A stretch of DNA of 64,000 nucleotides. Source: Minisyncoccota bacterium (GTDB taxonomy: Bacteria; Patescibacteriota; Minisyncoccia; Phycocordibacterales; SBAW01). The notes under the pieces are model-generated. The model searched no databases, was not told where the DNA came from, and worked only from the letters and a program-made list of their open reading frames with translations. The stretch spans positions 212,875 through 276,874 of the forward strand of contig DASZWN010000001.1 of the NCBI GenBank assembly GCA_035546575.1, in the 5' to 3' direction. Within the stretch, counting starts at the first letter, position 1. Every line of letters starts with the position of its first letter. Both the position numbers and the translations under genes were made by a program. Shown piece by piece: positions 4,762-35,381 of the stretch.

Positions 4762-6390
4762 ATGCCCAAATATATTTTTGTCGTTGGCGGGGTGATGTCA
4801 GGCATAGGCAAGGGCATCGCCACCTCCGCCATTGGGCGTATCCTCAAGTCAAAAGGTTTTGCGGTTACGGCACTTAAGATCGACCCCTATATCAATGTCG
4901 ATGCCGGGACGATGAATCCGACCGAGCACGGCGAGGTGTTTGTGCTCGAAGACGGCGACGAGTGCGACCAGGACATGGGCAACTACGAGCGTTTCCTCGA
5001 CATTACGCTCACGCGCACCAATTACATGACCACCGGGCGCGTCTACCAGGAGGTGATCCGCCGCGAGCGCAATCTCGAGTACAAGGGCCGCAATGTGCAG
5101 GTAGTGCCCGACGTGCCAGCCGAGGTGATCCGCCGCATTAAAGAGGCACAAGCAAAAGCTAAGGCGGATGTCACTATTGTCGAGGTGGGCGGTACGGTAG
5201 GCGAGTACGAGAACATTCTATTTTTGGAAGCGGCGCGCATGCTCAAGCATGAGGCGCCTAAGGATGTTGCGATTGTAATGCTCTCGTATGTGCCGATCCC
5301 AAACAATATCGGCGAGATGAAGACAAAGCCGACGCAGCACGCCAGCCGTGAGCTCAACTCGGTAGGGCTCCAGGCTGACATTATCTTGGCCCGCGCCGAG
5401 GTGCCGCTTGACCAAAAGCGCAAAGAAAAGATCGCGCTGTTTTGCAACGTGTCTCCGGAGCGCGTTGTTTCGGCACCCGATGTTGAAAGTATCTACGATG
5501 TGCCGCTCAACTACGAGAACGACGGTCTGGGCGACACTATGTGCGATGTATTGGGGCTCGAGCGCAAAAAGAGCGACCTCTCCGAGTGGGCCCAATATGT
5601 AGCAAAGTCAAAAAGTGCCACCACTCCTATTAAGGTTGCGGTAGTAGGAAAATATTTTAAGTCAGGCGAGTATGTGCTCGCCGATGTCTACATTTCGGTA
5701 ATCGAGTCGATAAAAGCAGCCGCGTATCATCAGGATCGCAAACCAGAGATTTCATACATAGACTCAGAGGATTTTGAAACAGGCAAGATGAAGCTTGAGG
5801 AGCTCAGACAATATGACGGAGTCATTGTACCGGGCGGTTTTGGCGAGCGCGGGGTAGAGGGTTTGGTGCTCGCAATACAGTTTGTGCGCGAGAATAAGAT
5901 CCCGTACCTGGGCCTGTGTTATGGCATGCAGTGGCTCACGATAGAGTACGCGCGCAACAAGGCGGGGCTTGCGGGCGCTAACACGGCAGAGGTCAACGCG
6001 AGTGCTCCGCACCCGGTCATCGACATCATGCCCGACCAAAAAGAAAAGATTTCAAAACAAGACTATGGCGGCACGATGCGCTTAGGTACCTATATAGCAC
6101 ATATTAAAGAGGGAAGCGTTGCGCATGAGGCATACGGCAAAACAGAGATATATGAGCGCCACCGCCACCGCTACGAGGTTAACCCGGAATATATAGAGCA
6201 GTTAGAGAAAGCAGGGCTCGTGTTCTCGGGCAAGTCTCCCGACGGCCGCTTGATGGAAATTGCCGAGCTCCCGCGCGAGGTCCACCCATTTTTTATCGCG
6301 TCACAGTTCCACCCCGAGTTTCTTTCGCGCCCTCTCTCTCCGCACCCGCTGTTTTCGGCTTTTATACGTGCCGCAAGCAAGAAGAATTAA
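4762..6390 (+). CDS. pyrG: CTP synthase
   Basis: MPKYIFVVGGVMSGIGKGI N-terminus, glutamine amidotransferase domain with GLCYGMQ, 542 aa. Confidence 0.95.
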   Translation: MPKYIFVVGGVMSGIGKGIATSAIGRILKSKGFAVTALKIDPYINVDAGTMNPTEHGEVFVLEDGDECDQDMGNYERFLDITLTRTNYMTTGRVYQEVIRRERNLEYKGRNVQVVPDVPAEVIRRIKEAQAKAKADVTIVEVGGTVGEYENILFLEAARMLKHEAPKDVAIVMLSYVPIPNNIGEMKTKPTQHASRELNSVGLQADIILARAEVPLDQKRKEKIALFCNVSPERVVSAPDVESIYDVPLNYENDGLGDTMCDVLGLERKKSDLSEWAQYVAKSKSATTPIKVAVVGKYFKSGEYVLADVYISVIESIKAAAYHQDRKPEISYIDSEDFETGKMKLEELRQYDGVIVPGGFGERGVEGLVLAIQFVRENKIPYLGLCYGMQWLTIEYARNKAGLAGANTAEVNASAPHPVIDIMPDQKEKISKQDYGGTMRLGTYIAHIKEGSVAHEAYGKTEIYERHRHRYEVNPEYIEQLEKAGLVFSGKSPDGRLMEIAELPREVHPFFIASQFHPEFLSRPLSPHPLFSAFIRAASKKN

Positions 6391-26523: not shown

Positions 26524-26532
26524 AAAATAACA

Positions 26533-26564
26533 GGCCGCCCTAGCGATAGGGCGGCCTTTCTTCT
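26533..26564. terminator. Bidirectional hairpin terminator (AGGCCGCCCtagcgatAGGGCGGCCT + TTCTTCT)
   Basis: Between convergent genes 25714..26523 and 26585..26881. Confidence 0.55.
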
Positions 26565-26950: not shown

Positions 26951-27460
26951 ATGGACCCGGAAGCAATGCTAAAAGGGCGCATGGCCGAGGCTTTAGTTGA
27001 AGAGATGCTCAAAAAAGCGGGCAACACTGTGTATCGCTTTGGGTATGAATCTGTCATTCAAAATCTTGTACAAGCTGGCGAAGTATTTGACCGATATACA
27101 GAGGTGGGGGAGAAGCTTAGAGCCATTCCAGATTTTGTTGTAATCGACAAAAACGGTAGACCAGCGTTTGTAGAAGTAAAGTTCCGATGGAATTCTGAGA
27201 TCCACGCTGACGATGTGGCGCGCCTTGAAAAGATAGAAAAGTATTGGCGCGCCGCAGTAATCTTTGTTAATTGTATAGAAAAACCATTTTTTAGAATTTC
27301 AGAACCCCCGTATCTTTCAGCAGATAAGCTTCTGCAATTAAAACCGCTCACATCAATCTCAGGGTGGAATGTAACTCCTGAATTAATAGAAGAGTATGAA
27401 AGAGTGGCACAGAAATACTTTGCTCCGACGCTAGTTACTCCATCGCAGAAGGGAAAGTAG
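26951..27460 (+). CDS. PD-(D/E)xK nuclease superfamily protein (YraN/Mrr-cat/Hjc-like core)
   Basis: AEALVEEMLKKAGNTVYRF ... IPDFVVIDKNGRPAFVEVKFR = helix + D ... (E)VK catalytic pattern of YraN/Mrr-type endonucleases; AT-rich. Confidence 0.55.
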   Translation: MDPEAMLKGRMAEALVEEMLKKAGNTVYRFGYESVIQNLVQAGEVFDRYTEVGEKLRAIPDFVVIDKNGRPAFVEVKFRWNSEIHADDVARLEKIEKYWRAAVIFVNCIEKPFFRISEPPYLSADKLLQLKPLTSISGWNVTPELIEEYERVAQKYFAPTLVTPSQKGK

Positions 27461-27496: not shown

Positions 27497-28447
27497 ATGC
27501 TTGGAAAAGTGGAAAAAGTTGATCTACGTAAGGCGTGGCCTCATGAGGCCCTAGATTTTACACGCTGGCTTGCTGAAGAGGCAAATCTCCGCTTGCTCTC
27601 AGAAGAGCTTGGGATTGAATTGGTGCACCTTGAGACCGAGGCAGGTGTGGGACGTTACAATGTCGATATCTTGGCTGAGGAACTTGGATCAGGGAAAAAG
27701 ATTATTATTGAAAATCAACTAGAGATAACAAATCACGATCATTTGGGCAAATTGATCACTTATGCATCTGGATACGATGCAAATATGGTCATTTGGGTTG
27801 TACGGGATGCTCGCGAGGAACATAGACAAGCTATTGATTGGCTTAACGAGCATACCGACGAGAATCTCGCATTTTTCTTAGTACAGTTAGAGCTTTGGCA
27901 GATTGGGAATTCTCCTTTCGCGCCAAAATTCAATATTATTTCAAAACCTAATGATTGGGCAAAAGTGGTAAAACGTTCTTTTGAGGGAGGCGAAATAACG
28001 GAGACCAAAGCACAACAGCTTAGGTTCTGGAATGCCTTTCAAGAATATGCAAAGAAAGAGGGAGTTAATTTTAGGTTTGAAGAACCTCAACCTAAGCATT
28101 GGTTCAATATCTATCTCAGCACGCATTACGCTCTTATTTCTCTCTCCTTAAATTCTTTTGAGAGAGCAATCCGCACAGAGTTTTATATCCGCTCAAGTAA
28201 AGAACTATATACGTACCTCGAAGGACACCGCGAGACTATAGAAAAGGAGATAGGAGCAAAATTGGTGTGGATGCCACTTGAAGGGAAGAAAGCGAGTCGA
28301 ATAAAAATAGAACGTACGGGTGATATAGATGAAGAACGTAACTGGGAAGAGTATTTTGCATGGTGTTTAAAACAAGCTCAAGTATTTGCACGTGTATTTC
28401 CTAAATACATTAAGGAGTTTGATAAAAATAAGAAGTCTAGAAAATAA
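27497..28447 (+). CDS. Two-domain protein: N-terminal restriction-endonuclease-like domain (D...ENQLE) fused to C-terminal DUF4268
   Basis: GRYNVDILAEE...KKIIIENQLEITNHDHLGKLITYA then QQLRFWNAFQEYAKK...HWFNIYL...IKIERTGDIDEERNWEEYFAWCL matching DUF4268 pattern. Confidence 0.6.
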   Translation: MLGKVEKVDLRKAWPHEALDFTRWLAEEANLRLLSEELGIELVHLETEAGVGRYNVDILAEELGSGKKIIIENQLEITNHDHLGKLITYASGYDANMVIWVVRDAREEHRQAIDWLNEHTDENLAFFLVQLELWQIGNSPFAPKFNIISKPNDWAKVVKRSFEGGEITETKAQQLRFWNAFQEYAKKEGVNFRFEEPQPKHWFNIYLSTHYALISLSLNSFERAIRTEFYIRSSKELYTYLEGHRETIEKEIGAKLVWMPLEGKKASRIKIERTGDIDEERNWEEYFAWCLKQAQVFARVFPKYIKEFDKNKKSRK

Positions 28448-28995
28448 TGGACTTGCTAAAGAAGACCGGCACACATAGTGATAATCGAAGGAATGACAAC
28501 GCGGACAAGAAACAGCTTTTCCCCAAGGAAAAGCATCCGCATACTGCGAGCTACCATAAAGAACAGTGGGCTTTTATCTCTGACACCGGCTTGCGTGAGA
28601 ATATTGCTTACCAGATGCAGTACCTGGAGTTTTTAATTAACCTCTACAATGACTATCAGCTCTATCTCACACTCGAGTCTCTGCTATGCAAAGACATACT
28701 CGCCACAGTGGGCGGGGTAGTGGAGGCAGCACTTTTTGACATGCTCCAAGATGCCAAGACAAAAGCCGGTATGCCGATGGGTACAAGGACTGACTTCACC
28801 GCCCTCCTAGGGGAGGCGTATCACAGCTTTAACTTTATAGACAAAGATATGTGGCACTACTTCCACGAGCTGCGCAAAGTCCGCAATTACGTACACCTAA
28901 AAGCCGCTGATTTCCAAGAGCATACGGCCTATACAGTGGAAGAGGCCAACGAAGCCATAAAAAAGCTCGAACAGTTTCGGCAGCAATTTGTGTAG
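28447..28995 (+). CDS. Hypothetical protein (182 aa), start overlaps stop of upstream DUF4268 gene
   Basis: TAATGG overlap (operon with 27497..28447); no motif. Confidence 0.5.
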   Translation: MDLLKKTGTHSDNRRNDNADKKQLFPKEKHPHTASYHKEQWAFISDTGLRENIAYQMQYLEFLINLYNDYQLYLTLESLLCKDILATVGGVVEAALFDMLQDAKTKAGMPMGTRTDFTALLGEAYHSFNFIDKDMWHYFHELRKVRNYVHLKAADFQEHTAYTVEEANEAIKKLEQFRQQFV

Positions 28996-29058: not shown

Positions 29059-30690
29059 TTGAACCATATGAAAATCTCTAGAATAAAAGTAAAAAACTTT
29101 CGCTCTGTTAAGGAGGTAGAGATTACACCTTCGGACTTCAATGTTTTTGTTGGACAAAACAACCACGGTAAGACGAACTTCTTTGAGGCGTTAAACTGGT
29201 TTTTTAAAGGCCCCACCAAGGGCGAGGGACTTGATGTCATTCGCTATCGCGGTGCCAGTGAAGACGACGAAGTGATGGTTGAGGTTGAATTTTCCGGTGC
29301 ACAAGAGGGAGCACAGAAGATGAAGAATGAAGCGAACAAGACAAAAATCCTGGGCGTTGTCGGTGAAAGCGACACTATAACCGTGGTGCGTAGCAGTGCC
29401 ACAGATGCAAAAAAGCGGGTACTCTTAATCAATGGAGATGTGAAGAAAAATCCCACTGGATTTGATACTGCGCTCAATGATTTCTTGCCGTCATTTGAGT
29501 ACGTTAGTACACTGGCTAGTCCGCTTGACACCGTCAAGTACAAATCCAACACACCGATAGCGAACATGCTTTCGGGAGTACTATCGGCCATTCTTGAGCA
29601 AGACGAGAAATATGCTGAGTTCAAGAAGAAGTTTGATGAACTTTTTACCGATCCGGGTTCACGCGTCCACGTTGAACTCAATAAACTTAGTGGCGAAGTA
29701 AAGGCGTACCTTGTAAAACAGTTTCCTGACTGCGAAAAAGTGGTGTTCAGCGTTACAGCCCCTCTGTTTGAAGACCTCCTCAAGAGCTTTGACGCTGAGA
29801 TAGATGATGGCGTTTACACAACTGCGAGTGAAAAAGGAGACGGTATGCAGCGCGCGTTAATGCTCGCTATCATACAAACGTATGCCGATTTCCGACGCGA
29901 GCACGAAGAAACCAGCAAATACTTCCTTTTCTTCATTGACGAGGGAGAGCTTCATTTGCACCCGACGGCTCAAAGAAAACTCAAAAACGCCCTGTTTGAT
30001 CTTGCTCAGGGAGGTGATCAAATATTTCTCAATACCCATTCCTCCGTGCTTGTCTCTGAGGAAGCCGAGGGCCAGACAATTTATAAGGTGGAAAAAATGG
30101 ATAAACAGACGAGCATTATGCCCATCAAGACAGAAGAAAAGCCAAGTGTGGTGTACGAATTACTTGGCGGTAGCCCGGCAGATCTACTATTGCCGAGCAA
30201 CTTTCTAATCGTGGAGGGTAAAAGTGAGTATGAGTTTATTTCCCGTGTTACGTCACGTTTTTATAGCGGTCAAAAGCAAATACAGGTTATTTACGCGGAG
30301 GGCGACCACGGACGCCAGCGCGAATCAATGGACAGTATCAATAAGGCTTTTGTACCTCTTCATGCCAGTCCTGTCTACAAAGAACGGCTGGTGATCCTGT
30401 GCGATACACCGAACCGCACACGCACAGCTGACTTCGACGCCTTCAAGAGGGCATACAGCTATCTAGAGACGAACGAACAACTTTTTGTCATCCCCAATGA
30501 GCGTCTCGAAGAATACTATCCGGCGCCCTGGAAGAAGACTGTAGCGGAGAGCCAAGCCATGAACGGAGAAAAGAACAGGAAGCTTGATCTTGCCCGAGAA
30601 GTAGGAAGCAGCATCACAAAAGAGCAGTTTGAATCCGAAATGAGCATTATTTATGGTGCTCTTAAAGCATGTTGGAATAAGGCGTATTAA
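29059..30690 (+). CDS. OLD-family / AAA_15-type ABC ATPase with C-terminal Toprim-like domain (GajA/AriAB/class-1-OLD-like)
   Basis: MKISRIKVKNFRSV..FNVFVGQNNHGKTNFFEAL (Walker A), EKGDGMQRALMLA (signature), FLFFIDEGELHLHP (Walker B), LNTHSS (H-loop), C-terminal NFLIVEGKSEYEFI (Toprim Glu) and acidic patch LVILCDTP...ADFD. Confidence 0.65.
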   Translation: MNHMKISRIKVKNFRSVKEVEITPSDFNVFVGQNNHGKTNFFEALNWFFKGPTKGEGLDVIRYRGASEDDEVMVEVEFSGAQEGAQKMKNEANKTKILGVVGESDTITVVRSSATDAKKRVLLINGDVKKNPTGFDTALNDFLPSFEYVSTLASPLDTVKYKSNTPIANMLSGVLSAILEQDEKYAEFKKKFDELFTDPGSRVHVELNKLSGEVKAYLVKQFPDCEKVVFSVTAPLFEDLLKSFDAEIDDGVYTTASEKGDGMQRALMLAIIQTYADFRREHEETSKYFLFFIDEGELHLHPTAQRKLKNALFDLAQGGDQIFLNTHSSVLVSEEAEGQTIYKVEKMDKQTSIMPIKTEEKPSVVYELLGGSPADLLLPSNFLIVEGKSEYEFISRVTSRFYSGQKQIQVIYAEGDHGRQRESMDSINKAFVPLHASPVYKERLVILCDTPNRTRTADFDAFKRAYSYLETNEQLFVIPNERLEEYYPAPWKKTVAESQAMNGEKNRKLDLAREVGSSITKEQFESEMSIIYGALKACWNKAY

Positions 30691-30695
30691 AGGTC

Positions 30696-31964
30696 ATGGA
30701 TAAGAAAAAACTTAAAAAAATATTGAATGAAACAAAAGCCTGGTCAAATCAGTCTGACAGTCTTGTCGCTGTTCAAAAAACAGGAGGTGGATTAGAGAAG
30801 GATGTCCAAACAGCATTGGGTTGGAAAGGAGGTCGTGTCGTCTACGACCGTGTTAGAGGTTATAAAGTGCAAGTGGATGCAGCCTACCCAGACGTAAGTA
30901 GGCCTGAGGTGGTTGTATCTGTTACCTACACTGATCCGGACTTACGAGGTCATAGCAATGAAAATAAATTGCATCTGAAAGTGGGAGAGCTTGCCTTACT
31001 AAAATTTGCGCACCCTCATATAAAAGTCATTTTAGTTCTTGGAGGCTCTCAAGAGGCTTGGCTTGCCTATGTACTTAAGGCATTTGAATATTTTTTCGAC
31101 GAAGTAATTTGTCTATGGAGCGAGAACGGATTAGCTCGTCTAGCGGTTATTAAAGAAAATCACAAATCGGTAAAATTGAAACACGTCGATTTTTGGGAAC
31201 AGCTCAATATTGAATGGGGGAAAATTAAATTCTACACAGAAGCAGATTTTGTTATTCCCCACAGTCTCTTTCGATACAAGACGCTTGATGACTTTAGGAG
31301 CCAAAAACCAAAAGTTTTCCATCCTTCGTTAATAAAAAATGAAGTAGCCCGTCTATGTATGCAGAGGTCGAAAGATTATAGCGGTACCGAATGGGATTCA
31401 TACATCCAAGACCGATGGCATAACATTGAAATGTCGCGAAATTACTTTAACCCAATGGAGGCGTTGATAGAGATTTTGCTTACAGATTCCAAGTTAAAAT
31501 TTGAAGGAGGTGTGGCGCGAGATATTCCAGTTCCATCGTTTCTACACCAGCTTGGAATGAAGGGGACTCGTGTCTCGGAAGATTTTGTCCTTTTTTCCAA
31601 GAAGCTCAACAAGAAAGTTTATATTCAATGTAAATCATCTGGTGGCGGAAGAGAGCAACACGGTAAAAACATTCAAAATCGCACAAAAGAACAAATTACA
31701 CGTAGTATTCTATACAGAAGTTCGGTCAAAGAAGGAAAAATGTACCTAGAAGATAAGAATTTCTATTGGATTTCTATTTTAGATGGCAATTGGTCGATTA
31801 ACGGTAGGGAGCCTTTTAAATATATCCACATGTTGCAGATTGCTGGATACGACAAGATATACGGAGTCCAAGACTTAATCCTTGAGGATGGCTTGACTCC
31901 AAAAACAAAGAATAATCCCTTACTCGATCATCTAATAAATGATCTCGATTGTGAGTTAATTTAA
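30696..31964 (+). CDS. Putative nuclease (422 aa) with restriction-endonuclease-like PD-(D/E)xK motif in C-terminal half
   Basis: SEDFVLFSKKLNKKVYIQCKSS (D ... QCK as in Mrr-cat/type II REases); N-terminal half has a degenerate similar element (VQVDAAYPD...EVVVSVTY); 6 nt downstream of ATPase gene; converges on methyltransferase. Confidence 0.5.
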   Translation: MDKKKLKKILNETKAWSNQSDSLVAVQKTGGGLEKDVQTALGWKGGRVVYDRVRGYKVQVDAAYPDVSRPEVVVSVTYTDPDLRGHSNENKLHLKVGELALLKFAHPHIKVILVLGGSQEAWLAYVLKAFEYFFDEVICLWSENGLARLAVIKENHKSVKLKHVDFWEQLNIEWGKIKFYTEADFVIPHSLFRYKTLDDFRSQKPKVFHPSLIKNEVARLCMQRSKDYSGTEWDSYIQDRWHNIEMSRNYFNPMEALIEILLTDSKLKFEGGVARDIPVPSFLHQLGMKGTRVSEDFVLFSKKLNKKVYIQCKSSGGGREQHGKNIQNRTKEQITRSILYRSSVKEGKMYLEDKNFYWISILDGNWSINGREPFKYIHMLQIAGYDKIYGVQDLILEDGLTPKTKNNPLLDHLINDLDCELI

Positions 31965-34900
31965 GGTTTGCGAAATATTACGATAGACTCTCTGACTGGA
32001 ATTTTACCAAACTGCTTCATCTGTTGAGGACTATTTCCTTTCATTCTGGTAACGAATATTTTTTCTGCTTTGAATCCTACTTTTTCTGCAAGAAGAAGAA
32101 GTAAATGGTCAACAGGTACTACCACGCCGCCCCAGCGAGAGTTTCCGACCACAAAGGCTGCCTTCCCTCCCTTACGCATAACATCAAATATGTTTTTCAG
32201 GTTTTCCTCAAGGTCGGCAAAATAACCCGCAATCATTTGAGGTATTTTACTGTTGTTGCCATCAGTTAGTTCCATAGCAGAGATAAGCTTCTGTACTTCG
32301 GGTATAGACTCTGAAATATCGAGATCTAGGTCGCTATCCGTGTGAGATCTGAAAGTTGATCTAACAAGTGTCTTATATTCTTGTTGGCTTTTTACAAGCG
32401 ATAGTAAAGATAGCTCCGCTTTTTGTTGAGCTATATAGTTGTTTCTATTTAAATACGGAGGTGAGGTTATAACAAAGTCAATTGAATTTTTCTTAAGTTT
32501 GAATTTCTTCGCGTCTCCCAAGAATATTTGATGGCGGGAGTCGTTTCTCTTGGATTCTTTTGTCACAATTTCTATATCCTCAAGCATTTTGTTAATTTGC
32601 ACCTTAAATAACGGTAATATATCTGATCCAGGATTTACAATTTTTATATTTAATTTTTGGAGTCCTATACTATCTGGATTAAGCATGTAACGATAGTGCG
32701 ATCCATGTTTTCTAATTTGACTCACATCCTCCAATATTCCAATTAATCCCAAAAGAAGGAGATCCTGTTCCTGTCCTGAGAGAGCAGAATTGCTAATTTG
32801 ATCTTTAATTTGCTTGACTTGATTCCAGATCTGAAAAGAAAATGCCTTACTTAGGAACTCAGGGAAAAGATCTTCCTTTTTAGATTCTCTGCTTTCTACG
32901 TCTAAATTAGATAAGAACCCGTTTATTTTTTTGAAATTTTTTATATCCAAGGAAGATATTTTAATCTTGCTAACCCATATCATTAGCGGGGATATGTCAA
33001 AAGATATTGTATTAATATTTCTTTTTTTGCCTGTGAGTATGGTAGTTCCTGAACCTACAAAAGGATCAAGTATCGTAGCGTTTCTTTTTTTGTTTACGTT
33101 CAAGTGCTCTATAAGAAAATTTACCAATGGCTCAGAATAGCCTTGAGTGAAAGGAAACCACCGATGCACGGGTAGCTTTTTGTTTATTTGAAAAGTAACA
33201 GATCTGCGTAACTCCGGTTTATCTTCCTGCAGTTTTTGGTACTTCTTTATATCGATAGGGACAAATTTCTCTAGAGATGTTTTCTCACTTCCATACCTTT
33301 TTTCTTTTAAATTATTCTTAGTTGGTAAGGACTTTCTGTGAGAATTTGCAATATCATCTCTAATAAATTGATATTCTGTTGGGGAAAGTTTAAAGACTGA
33401 AGCCACAACATGGTCGAGCTTATCCCAACTCTTTTGATTTTCTGGATTTTTATATAGATCGGTAGTTATTTTTTGAGCTAAATTCCTTTGCTCACGATCA
33501 AACTGGGGCAGTCGAATTGATTGCAGATGATGTTTTAAGAGTCTAAACCAGCCACTATGGAGTTGTGTTCCGTTGTGTCGAAGTGCAAACTCCATTACTG
33601 GAGTGCTAAGTACTGCGCTCCAGAATTTTAGATCTGTTTCGCTCATTGCCCTATTGACCAAGGCGTAGCCGGAACCGATCGCAGTGTCTCCGGTTATGTC
33701 TGCCGCAAATTGAGAAGAAGGCATCATTTCTTTCACTAAGATTTTTGGTGTCTGAGGTAAATGTAAATTTTGGACTCGGCTAAACGCATACCAAGAGGCA
33801 TTTTTATCAAGATTCCTACCAGAGAGTAATTGCTTGTTAGATAATAAATATGCGTATATATTCGGAGCCATTTTTTTCAGGGTATTTTCTTCTATAACCT
33901 TAACTTTGCCCGTAGAAGAGATTTCATACGGATAAATTAACTTGTATTGTTCCCTTGAAATAAAGAGTCTTTTTATCTCCTCTCCTCCAACAAACGGCCT
34001 CAAAAGGTCTTGCTCTAAGTCTGTTTCGGCGTCTTTTTTCAACACAAAAACATCATTTTGGCCCGTGCGGAGACCTTGAAGAATGTTGGGGAATAAATGG
34101 CTAATTAAAGGAAGATTGGGGTTATTTATCTTTTGAATAATACTTTGAGCTTGATCGGTCGCTAAATTCCACGGAAACTTCTCTAAGATGTTAGTGTTTA
34201 AACTGAAAGTTTTGGATTTGTTTAGGTCGTTAGCAGATGTGATTCCTGTTGGAAAGTGGGTAACTGTAAACTTTTTTGCTGCCGGAAGCTTCGTAAAGGT
34301 AAGAACTGTGGTATAGGTTGTATGGTCTGGAAAGACTTGAGAATCTTTGAAGTCAATAATATTGAGTATTCTCACATCTTTTGCCAGTCGGGCGCATATA
34401 GCCTTTCCATATTCAGAATGCATGAATTTACTTGTGGTGATGTAACAACCAATTCCTCCATCAGTGAGACTTCTTATGGCATGTTCAATAAAAATTATAG
34501 ACAGGTCAAAATTCCCTGACGTTATATCCGGATACTTTTCCTTTATTAATCCGACGTAATTTTCTGATAGGTTCTGAGACCTAACATAGGGCGGATTTCC
34601 AATCAATATGTCGAACTTCTCGTTTTCGGATTCAGAGGAAAACAAAGACTCTTTTTGCAAAGAAAGCAGAGAATCAGAGTGTTGAATTTTAGCCTCCAGC
34701 TTAAGCGCATCATTCAATATTTTTGCAAACCTTGTCGATGTTTTGTCCACGTCATTTCCATGAAGAGATACGTCTTTACCAAAGAAGTCTCTTGCACTGG
34801 AAAGAAAAACTCCAGTACCACAAGCAATGTCTCCAACTTTCTGGACTTTTCGTCCTGTTCTGTGCAATTTATTCCAATGTTGCCACGCTGTTTGAGTAAC

Positions 34901-35152
34901 TTTGTCTGCCAGCCATTTTGGTGTGAATACTGCACCGGAATTTTTCTGTTCCTCACTAGACAACATTGATGTTCTCAGTGAAGCAAGGGCGTCTTCAATA
35001 CCGTGTATACTTATTAATTCTGAAAAGTTATTCAGATCTTGTTTGGATAGATCTTGTATTTCTCTTAACAGTCGAGGAGAAAGGCTCATCCCCTCTATAT
35101 TCGTTCGAGAGCTTTTAGGTCGATGGGGGAGGGTAGGAACGGATTTACTCAT
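31961..35152 (-). CDS. Two-module DNA methyltransferase: N-terminal gamma-class N6-adenine MTase with TaqI-like target-recognition domain, plus C-terminal second MTase module
   Basis: Module 1: VGDIACGTGVFL (motif I), ILIGNPPYV (motif IV), TaqI-C-like region (LLRPFVGGEEIKR..., WYAFSRVQNL). Module 2: ILDPFVGSGTTIL (FxGxG) and FVITSPPYLNR (SPPY). Start taken at ATG 35152 (TTG 35158 used by ORF track); TATAAT 7 nt upstream. Confidence 0.75.
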   Translation of the reverse strand: MSKSVPTLPHRPKSSRTNIEGMSLSPRLLREIQDLSKQDLNNFSELISIHGIEDALASLRTSMLSSEEQKNSGAVFTPKWLADKVTQTAWQHWNKLHRTGRKVQKVGDIACGTGVFLSSARDFFGKDVSLHGNDVDKTSTRFAKILNDALKLEAKIQHSDSLLSLQKESLFSSESENEKFDILIGNPPYVRSQNLSENYVGLIKEKYPDITSGNFDLSIIFIEHAIRSLTDGGIGCYITTSKFMHSEYGKAICARLAKDVRILNIIDFKDSQVFPDHTTYTTVLTFTKLPAAKKFTVTHFPTGITSANDLNKSKTFSLNTNILEKFPWNLATDQAQSIIQKINNPNLPLISHLFPNILQGLRTGQNDVFVLKKDAETDLEQDLLRPFVGGEEIKRLFISREQYKLIYPYEISSTGKVKVIEENTLKKMAPNIYAYLLSNKQLLSGRNLDKNASWYAFSRVQNLHLPQTPKILVKEMMPSSQFAADITGDTAIGSGYALVNRAMSETDLKFWSAVLSTPVMEFALRHNGTQLHSGWFRLLKHHLQSIRLPQFDREQRNLAQKITTDLYKNPENQKSWDKLDHVVASVFKLSPTEYQFIRDDIANSHRKSLPTKNNLKEKRYGSEKTSLEKFVPIDIKKYQKLQEDKPELRRSVTFQINKKLPVHRWFPFTQGYSEPLVNFLIEHLNVNKKRNATILDPFVGSGTTILTGKKRNINTISFDISPLMIWVSKIKISSLDIKNFKKINGFLSNLDVESRESKKEDLFPEFLSKAFSFQIWNQVKQIKDQISNSALSGQEQDLLLLGLIGILEDVSQIRKHGSHYRYMLNPDSIGLQKLNIKIVNPGSDILPLFKVQINKMLEDIEIVTKESKRNDSRHQIFLGDAKKFKLKKNSIDFVITSPPYLNRNNYIAQQKAELSLLSLVKSQQEYKTLVRSTFRSHTDSDLDLDISESIPEVQKLISAMELTDGNNSKIPQMIAGYFADLEENLKNIFDVMRKGGKAAFVVGNSRWGGVVVPVDHLLLLLAEKVGFKAEKIFVTRMKGNSPQQMKQFGKIPVRESIVIFRKP

Positions 35153-35381
35153 AGGCAAATTATACTACCTCTACCACGTTCGTGGGAACACGAAACTGTG
35201 GACATACTTAATTACTTGCTTTAGGATGAGAGGCGCATTGAACCGTCTCGGATTCTCTTTATGTATCTCCCTAAGCTTTTCGATTTCTGGTCCAATTATC
35301 GCAAACACCGTTTCAAACGAGGGGGAGATTAATCCTGCCTTAAGTCCAAGTCTGGACTTCTAAATTTGCTATACTAGTGGT

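Follow-up and report, generated by a model that had tools for sequence, protein, structure and literature searches.

We conclude with considerable confidence that the window, as we call the whole 64,000-nucleotide stretch of DNA analysed here, carries two independent defence units, a Type II restriction-modification (R-M) cassette and a Class-1-type OLD protein, which were juxtaposed by horizontal insertion. A first-pass annotation had read the OLD gene and the 422-aa gene that follows it as a dedicated two-gene module, possibly of an undescribed OLD class, and had offered as a fallback that the 422-aa protein serves the convergent methyltransferase as its restriction enzyme. The surveys of homologous loci described below favour the fallback. 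Both reading frames, the convergent 1065-aa frame and the motifs quoted for them are present, and their coordinates stand apart from two details. The frame that opens with TTG, 29059-30690 (+), encodes 543 aa, and the OLD gene probably starts instead at the ATG at 29068, since every homologue opens with MKI... and has a length of about 540 aa; the spacing to the next gene is 5 nt, not six.

Table 1. Coordinates of the genes, motifs and junction discussed in the text (positions in the window)
Feature	Position	Strand	Details
OLD-family nuclease gene	29068..30690	+	540 aa; N-terminal ABC ATPase and C-terminal Toprim
Walker A, GQNNHGKT	29152..29175	+	residues 29-36 (540-aa numbering)
Walker B and adjoining His-rich loop, FLFFIDEGELHLHP	29923..29964	+	residues 286-299
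First Toprim motif, VEGKSE	30211..30228	+	E383, E387
Toprim strand 3, LCDTP, with one acidic residue, D446	30397..30411	+	strand 442-445 in model
Distal Toprim acidic and basic residues, E481 and K490	30502..30537	+	E481 invariant, K490 in 49/54
Spacer, junction of two independently inherited units	30691..30695		5 nt
Type II restriction endonuclease gene (predicted), uncharacterised family	30696..31964	+	422 aa
Conserved N-terminal block of the 422-aa protein	30870..30968	+	D61; S75-x-T77; GHSNENK 85-91; invariant columns
Predicted catalytic block of the 422-aa protein	31575..31652	+	S294-E295-D296 ... Y309-x-Q311-x-K313-x-SGGG
Cognate DNA methyltransferase gene (predicted), two-methyltransferase fusion	31961..35158	-	1065 aa
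TSPPY motif IV, C-terminal methyltransferase domain	32453..32467	-	motif position
GNPPY motif IV, N-terminal Eco57I-type domain	34586..34600	-	motif position

The 540-aa protein is a true member of the OLD family, an ABC ATPase joined to a Toprim domain, as had been proposed from its motifs. It matched the PADLOC Old model (3.4e-62) and Pfam AAA_15 (6e-35), with additional matches to AAA_21 and SMC_N, and tblastn aligned its residues 1-387 with phage P2 old at 28% identity (E 7e-32). A Foldseek search with the AlphaFold model returned full-length matches to GajA (1e-17), which was the best fold match in the PDB, to the retron-Eco8 OLD protein (6e-16) and to the Thermus OLD structure 6p74 (7e-16), the alignments with Thermus scotoductus (Ts) OLD and GajA spanning 588-627 columns. 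Between them, the homology to P2 Old and the full-length fold match to Ts OLD relate the protein to archetypal OLD proteins from end to end. More than 1585 relatives of the protein were present in the database. When a phage collection was searched with the gene, P2 old itself was the sole match, and a phage origin of the window gene was rejected.

The motifs GQNNHGKT, EKGDGMQRAL, FLFFIDEGELHLHP, NTHSS (the H-loop) and VEGKSE were all found in the protein. Across 54 family members, seven of the eight Walker A residues were invariant and Q30 was conserved in at least 90%, while in the Walker B region and the His-rich loop D291, E294 and H296-P299 were invariant and E292 was conserved in at least 90%. 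With Walker A, Walker B and the H-loop invariant or conserved to this degree, the protein is an ABC ATPase with intact nucleotide-binding motifs. In the Toprim domain, E383 and an acidic residue at position 387 (E or D) were present in all 54 sequences, and VEGKSE aligned with E379 of GajA and with E398/E402 of P2 Old. The canonical DxD is replaced by a single Asp, D446 being present in 53 of the 54 sequences and position 448 being P, Q or H. The metal-B Glu and transition-state residues of characterised OLD proteins are E480/R487 in Ts OLD and E543/K550 in P2 Old (PMC7049728), and E481 and K490 are candidates for these roles in the window protein, a correspondence that we infer from sequence. 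The residue two positions before E481 varies among relatives and is R in the window protein. The last ~150 residues gave no sequence alignment to any solved OLD; because of this, and because one Asp takes the place of DxD, the nuclease competence of the clade is uncertain.

The 422-aa protein has a restriction-endonuclease fold with conserved predicted catalytic residues. It contains the block SEDFVLF...YIQCKSS, whose residues the AlphaFold model places on strands 297-301 and 306-314; E295, D296, Q311 and K313 were invariant in 56 sequences of the family, and Firmicutes homologues carry Q-S-K instead of Q-C-K. The fold, together with domain and profile searches in which no helicase domain and no HNH match were detected, agrees with the earlier description of a protein resembling PD-(D/E)xK restriction endonucleases and distinct from GajB, AriB and PtuB. 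No match to the protein was obtained in Pfam, NCBIfam, PADLOC or the PDB sequences, or in a plasmid search, and public records name members of its cluster 'hypothetical protein'. The family has 241 database relatives (more than 240 clusters) from many phyla, one archaeon among them, and its mean column identity of 59% across phyla points to strong purifying selection. Since both this family and that of the OLD protein are large and strongly conserved, the motif features of the two proteins are far beyond chance. A degenerate copy of the nuclease element had also been described in the N-terminal half; hhalign comparison of N-half and C-half profiles gave a probability of 0.2%, with no sequence similarity, and an internal duplication was rejected. 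The conserved N-terminal block lies in a domain with the element order alpha-beta-beta-beta-alpha-beta in the AlphaFold model, and may either serve in DNA recognition or form a second nuclease-like site of a non-canonical type.

The methyltransferase gene is convergent with the endonuclease gene, and the stop codons of the two overlap by 4 nt. Its product matched Pfam Eco57I (1.5e-30) and N6_Mtase in the N-terminal half and N6_N4_Mtase (7.7e-13) in the C-terminal half, and PADLOC MTase_II matched it twice, at residues 50-559 (1.7e-62) and 618-1065 (5e-68). NPPY motifs are as a rule associated with N6-adenine methylation, and SPPY motifs typically with N4-cytosine methylation; going by these motifs, the N-terminal domain would be of the N6-adenine and the C-terminal domain of the N4-cytosine type. 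We surveyed 33 loci with homologues of the 422-aa protein, as the first-pass annotation had suggested. In 32 of them a homologue of the 1065-aa methyltransferase directly adjoins the 422-aa homologue, and the remaining locus is truncated by the end of its contig. The two methyltransferase domains are separate genes in loci L034 and L035, and in L037 the endonuclease and methyltransferase genes decay together. This linkage identifies the 422-aa protein as the predicted restriction enzyme of the fused methyltransferase. Type IIS/IIA R-M systems have two strand-specific methyltransferases, either fused or separate, for example FokI, Alw26I/Esp3I, MboII and SapI. The window cassette (30696-35158), with its NPPY and SPPY domains, is probably a Type II R-M system of this IIS/IIA subtype.

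None of the 33 loci with 422-aa homologues contained an OLD gene, and the only one of 73 non-redundant OLD-clade loci to contain a 422-aa homologue was the window itself. In blastn searches, only the OLD genes of loci L040 and L013 matched positions 29067-30690 of the window, and only the R-M cassettes of L008 and L018 matched positions 30695-35003, in both cases with 77% identity; the GC content steps from 0.46 to 0.39 at the spacer. Because DNA similarity breaks exactly in the spacer and neither locus survey shows the pair outside the window, we regard the OLD gene and the cassette as two independent units. The 5-nt spacing implies co-transcription, and the OLD and endonuclease genes are probably co-transcribed without a specific partnership. 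We give almost no credence to a dedicated defence system of the two genes, a new OLD class akin to Gabija and PARIS. The two genes share a strand and a 5-nt spacer, the 422-aa protein belongs to no known family, and OLD proteins of Classes 2-4 act with partners; however, the pair occurs in the window genome only, being absent from 33 and 72 other loci in the respective surveys, the 422-aa protein is tied to the methyltransferase instead, and the breakpoint falls between the two genes. It is also improbable that the methyltransferase is an orphan accompanied by a 422-aa protein that is no active restriction enzyme and whose nuclease fold has decayed or taken on another role, for instance in DNA-binding regulation or modification-dependent activity. 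Such a protein would fit the lack of sequence matches to characterised endonucleases and the Q-x-K in place of (D/E)-x-K, but it sits poorly with purifying selection on the family and its invariant E295, D296, Q311 and K313, with the joint decay of both genes in L037, and with a strict methyltransferase linkage that is the pattern of a toxic enzyme needing protection.

In 39-52% of loci, the OLD gene of this clade is embedded in, or neighbours, an R-M operon, and these operons are of several types. R-M genes occurred within three genes of OLD in 27 of 69 loci, compared to 0 of 202 genes further out, a control that was seeded from near neighbours and may miss methyltransferases of other families further out. 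In L040 and L013 a Type III mod gene lies upstream of OLD, with a 4-nt overlap at the OLD start. Because the clade repeatedly sits in or by unrelated types of R-M operon, the placement of the window OLD gene immediately 5' of the endonuclease gene is one more case of 'embedding', a general pattern already described for defence genes (Payne et al. 2024, preprint). Neighbour clustering of the 73 non-redundant loci yielded no universal partner gene; a DUF2130 gene adjoined OLD in 13 of 69 loci. The window OLD gene is flanked by a 182-aa orphan and the endonuclease, and a conserved upstream partner was rejected, since the genes preceding OLD in L014, L016 and the window bear no relation to one another. 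A 169-aa window protein has one homologue only, beside OLD in L016, and so occurs in two of the 73 loci. The clade is common in Patescibacteria.

The OLD clade might act as a second line that guards any host R-M system without a fixed partner; it could, for example, be triggered when a phage anti-restriction protein disables the R-M enzymes, as happens to PrrC with EcoprrI and to PARIS through Ocr (precedents in bioRxiv 10.1101/2024.01.29.577857). The enrichment of R-M genes near OLD and the overlaps with Type III mod are consistent with such a role. We nevertheless consider it rather unlikely, because R-M genes are missing from the vicinity of OLD in roughly half of the loci with good coverage, and from the place next to it in three of the five homologue loci that were read through completely (L014/L015, L016 and L017), and because embedding can also be explained by insertion into permissive sites (a 'genomic sink'). 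If the clade does guard R-M systems, the juxtaposition in the window would be a working two-layer unit and not an accident. Doubtful as well is the wider proposal that the OLD clade is a portable 'restriction guard', which would insert into R-M operons of any type (II, III and others), be functionally linked to them, and fire its Toprim nuclease once phage anti-restriction proteins neutralise the flanking R-M enzymes; the 422-aa family would, separately, be a new Type IIS enzyme family whose N-terminal domain may hold a second, non-canonical active site. On the reading that we prefer, two independent units, the OLD protein is an ordinary stand-alone, Class-1-like nuclease, which may have functional interplay with the R-M genes in the window's own genome.

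Among known systems, the OLD protein shares its P2 Old homology and Ts OLD fold match with Class 1 (P2 Old, Thermus scotoductus OLD, Vibrio cholerae OLD and E. coli YbjD/OldB), and like Class 1 it is not accompanied by a helicase, a reverse transcriptase or a second protein with a Toprim domain. It differs in the single Asp and the unalignable C-terminal residues, and, whereas Class 1 genes, as a review defines them, stand away from other defence genes, members of this clade are often in R-M operons and the window gene is in a defence island. Embedded HEC-04, PARIS and PrrC/RloC genes, found in R-M, BREX and Hma loci (Payne et al. 2024), similarly combine an ABC ATPase with a nuclease and nest in or abut R-M genes, and the 4-nt overlaps of the OLD clade with flanking R-M genes suggest operon membership; unlike the HEC families, however, the window protein scores best against Old. 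Gabija (Class 2 OLD), PARIS (Class 4 OLD) and Septu have ABC ATPases of the same broad clade, but the gene next to the window ATPase is not conserved with it. That neighbour has an endonuclease fold and not that of the UvrD/PcrA/Rep-like helicase GajB. In PARIS, AriA lacks a Toprim domain and AriB (DUF4435) is separate, whereas the window Toprim is fused to the ATPase; no DUF4435 protein was found near the window OLD gene, and AriA models matched the ATPase part only. There is no PtuB HNH neighbour as in Septu, and matches to PtuA were weak and limited to the P-loop. The cassette resembles Type IIS/IIA systems in its small endonuclease gene beside a methyltransferase with two catalytic domains, in the PD-(D/E)xK fold, and in the separate methyltransferase genes of its distant relatives, but no characterised enzyme is detectably related to the endonuclease in sequence.

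We propose that horizontal insertion placed the two units side by side. In the R-M cassette, each methyltransferase domain would modify one strand of an asymmetric site, and the endonuclease would cleave unmethylated incoming DNA through a PD-(D/E)xK-type site formed by E295/D296 and Q311-x-K313, possibly with E332 of the next helix. In the one-gene OLD unit, an ABC-ATPase sensor is fused to a Toprim nuclease; by analogy to P2 Old, Thermus OLD and Vibrio OLD, its oligomer would stay inactive until infection-associated cues appear, and once activated might nick or degrade DNA or cleave tRNA, aborting the infection.

These results remove a false lead, as no new OLD class is present at this locus. 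The counted R-M association of a Class-1-type clade bears on what stand-alone OLD proteins sense and on why defence genes embed in one another. The 422-aa family is not represented by any model in Pfam, NCBIfam or PADLOC, and it may offer a new Type IIS specificity of interest to enzyme discovery and to annotation pipelines. Size and published nicking-mutant residue numbers had made SapI/BspQI a tentative identity, which was not supported: those residues could not be matched in any register to the window protein or to those of Ureibacillus and Paenibacillus, and GCTCTTC was not depleted (10 observed, 10.4 expected). In word-avoidance scans of the window and pooled host flanks, no shared asymmetric 5-7-mer stood out. 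Not shared by the pooled host flanks, a depletion of GGATG/CATCC was seen in the window only.

A Type II restriction-modification (R-M) cassette and a Class-1-type OLD gene adjoin each other in this region, a defence island (see table). The region lies in a metagenome-assembled genome (MAG) of Candidatus Paceibacterota (CPR), and the GC content of the island (~26.9-35.2 kb, six ORFs) is 0.38-0.47, as against 0.53-0.54 in the flanks.

Features of the window and of the loci of relatives compared with it
Locus	Positions (strand)	Feature	Remarks
Window	26532-26557	Hairpin	Terminator-like, bidirectional
Window	26951-27460	169-aa protein	PD-(D/E)xK-like signature IPDFVVI...FVEVKFR
Window	27497-28447	DUF4268 protein, 316 aa	PADLOC single-gene defence candidate PDC-S11, 7e-119
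Window	28447-28995	182-aa orphan ORF	Start overlaps DUF4268 gene stop (ATGA)
Window	29059 or 29068-30690 (+)	ATPase (OLD)
Window	30696-31964 (+)	422-aa protein
Window	31961-35158 (-)	Methyltransferase, 1065 aa	Convergent
Window	35159-35188 (-)	Promoter-like match	TTCCCA-18-TATAAT, 10/12
L008	~1000-1090	tRNA-3'-end-like sequence
L018	~5900-6000	tRNA-3'-end-like sequence
L016	6331-6942	169-aa protein homologue	Parcubacteria MAG
L037	5971-10222	Endonuclease and methyltransferase homologues	Alphaproteobacteria MAG
L056	7650-8969	DUF2130, beside OLD
L099	4124-5986	DUF2130, beside OLD
L090	1998-3515	DUF2130, beside OLD

The first-pass annotation had joined the ATPase and the 422-aa protein in a candidate two-gene defence module, with the fallback that the latter is the restriction enzyme of the convergent methyltransferase. 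Neighbourhoods of 422-aa homologues were surveyed, as that annotation had suggested, at 33 loci (12 from an exact-protein look-up, 21 from scanning a single genome of each species) from Bacteroidota, Cyanobacteria, Firmicutes, Acidobacteriota, Chloroflexota, Proteobacteria, Planctomycetota, CPR and a Pacearchaeota archaeon, and homologues were scored by phmmer using the window proteins as queries. A homologue of the methyltransferase immediately adjoined the endonuclease gene in 32 of the 33, the remaining locus ending at a contig edge, and phmmer found an OLD homologue in none. The two genes usually lay tail-to-tail, like those of the window; in L035 and L036 the methyltransferase preceded the endonuclease gene on the same strand, and in L034 and L035 it formed two separate genes. 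Both homologues are frameshifted in L037, in several frames, and this R-M cassette is decaying as one unit. Linkage therefore favours the fallback, and the 422-aa protein is predicted to be the restriction endonuclease that goes with this methyltransferase, a reading that linkage, fold and motif conservation all fit.

The 422-aa protein (100% identical to NCBI protein VHD31_01485) had no match among Pfam, NCBIfam or PADLOC models or PDB sequences, and no name for the endonuclease was obtained from these sources; a resemblance to SapI/BspQI was not supported. It has 241 database relatives at 50-85% identity, and an alignment of 56 relatives revealed invariant E295-D296 and Q311-x-K313, followed by an SGGG/GKN..NR.KEQ block; a block in the N-terminal part (D61, S75-x-T77, GHSNENK) was likewise invariant. 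The endonuclease family has no annotation and is of a known kind. No sequence similarity was detectable between the two halves (hhalign probability 0.2%), which leaves the earlier proposal of a tandem nuclease with one basis, the fold-like topology seen in the N-terminal domain.

In the methyltransferase an Eco57I-type domain (GNPPY) is fused to an N6_N4 domain (TSPPY), and either half matched one complete stand-alone Type II methyltransferase model. Two strand-specific activities would imply an asymmetric site, and the cassette is probably a Type IIS/IIA system, judging from these two domains. No recognition site was inferred by word avoidance. The most depleted 5-mer in the window (1-64000) was the FokI-type word GGATG/CATCC (51 observed, 97 expected, z -4.7); its depletion, which did not extend to the flanks at other loci with this endonuclease family, may reflect another R-M system of the genome or the present cassette. 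The best promoter-like match of the region directly adjoins the start of the methyltransferase gene on its upstream side. The endonuclease gene has no comparable site before it, consistent with read-through from the OLD gene, but this evidence is weak because promoter-like sites in the region were as numerous as the shuffled expectation.

Assignment of the ATPase to the OLD family was upheld by Pfam (AAA_15, 6e-35), the PADLOC 'Old' model (3.4e-62), a tblastn match of residues 1-387 to the archetype, P2 old, among phages (28% identity, E 7e-32), and PDB sequence searches that found GajA and Thermus scotoductus (Ts) OLD. Its AlphaFold model (pLDDT 81) matched GajA (1e-17), retron-Eco8 OLD (6e-16) and Ts OLD (7e-16) over essentially the whole length, and all motifs quoted earlier were present. 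ATG 29068 is the probable start, because homologues are ~540 aa long and begin MKI... The C-terminal part of the model contains strands and helices in Toprim order. The catalytic residues published for Ts OLD are E377/D431/D433 (metal A), D381/S478/E480 (metal B) and R487; those of P2 Old are E398/D453/D455, E402/D541/E543 and K550 (PMC7049728). Among 54 relatives (540-aa numbering), E383, E or D at 387, and E481 were conserved in all, D446 in 53 and K490 in 49, whereas a single Asp (LCD-T-P) occupies the expected DxD position, which holds two in Ts OLD and P2 Old. A Toprim domain mostly equipped with catalytic residues is predicted from this pattern, and the earlier concern that these residues might be lacking was not borne out.

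As first proposed, the ATPase belongs to none of Gabija, PARIS and Septu, the defining partner gene of each being missing beside it. It is, however, no undescribed OLD-class variant: architecture, homology and the absence of a partner gene all fit Class 1. The OLD gene falls within a known class, its genomic context has precedent, and nothing in the OLD and R-M region is categorically new. No conserved neighbour was present in five loci from exact look-ups, and the search for a conserved OLD partner gene yielded none. In the two closest relatives (89% and 85% identity), OLD is flanked by Type III mod and res genes (PADLOC MTase_III 5.5e-113, REase_III 3e-16) and overlaps mod by 4 nt. A metagenome scan contributed 80 further loci; crude gene calling and neighbour clustering left 73 non-redundant loci, and neighbour clusters within three genes of OLD served as seeds. 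A methyltransferase, endonuclease or Res gene occurred within three genes of OLD in 27/69 loci with any neighbour and 16/31 well-covered loci; in 18 loci the R-M gene directly adjoined OLD. None of 202 genes at offsets of at least four matched the seeds. The systems beside OLD belong to unrelated types: Type III mod/res, MvaI/BcnI with a small methyltransferase, AlwI with a methyltransferase, an EcoRI-type methylase with a GmrSD-like protein, and SNF2-DUF2130-OLD-Mod-RhuM-Res arrays. Among the 73 loci a 422-aa homologue was found only in the window, which, together with the missing OLD at the endonuclease loci, argues against a dedicated two-gene module. DUF2130 proteins (~400-620 aa) immediately adjoined the OLD-clade gene in 13/69 loci (9 upstream, 4 downstream; examples in the table) and have no PADLOC model; DUF2130 could therefore be a recurrent, undescribed OLD companion.

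The two units also separated in blastn comparisons. Window positions 29067-30690 matched L040 and L013 at 77% identity, in their OLD genes and nowhere else in these loci. Positions 30695-35003 matched the R-M cassettes in L008 and L018, also at 77% identity, from the endonuclease ATG on; what lies upstream of that ATG in these two loci looks like a tRNA 3' end and is not OLD. The units, which differ in GC content, therefore have different nearest relatives and meet in a 5-nt spacer. The tRNA-3'-end-like sequence (GGTTCGAATCC...CCA) just before the endonuclease ATG in L008 and L018, which hold the two closest relatives of the cassette, suggests insertion of the cassette beside a tRNA.

By analogy with its family, the R-M unit would mark host DNA through the two-domain methyltransferase, and the D...QxK site of the endonuclease would cleave unmarked DNA. 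The ATPase, like characterised relatives, may sense infection-associated DNA structures or interference with host nucleases, whereupon Toprim would nick DNA, as in Ts OLD and Vibrio cholerae OLD (PMC7049728, PMC12392090), or cleave tRNA, as in P2 Old (bioRxiv 10.64898/2026.07.10.737580), and abort the infection. The frequent location of this OLD clade within R-M operons agrees with a pattern, 'embedded defence genes', already known for ABC-ATPase/Toprim proteins, PrrC and PARIS (bioRxiv 10.1101/2024.01.29.577857); that an embedded OLD functionally guards its R-M system seems to us rather improbable.

The DUF4268 gene and the 182-aa orphan appear to be a further defence candidate within this island and may form a two-gene unit. 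In L016 the next gene upstream of OLD encodes a homologue of the 169-aa protein (34% identity, E 1e-10); such a gene was present at only 2 of 73 OLD loci. A GC-rich hairpin, a perfect palindrome of 11 bp with T-rich tails on either strand, lies some 400 nt to the left of the island.
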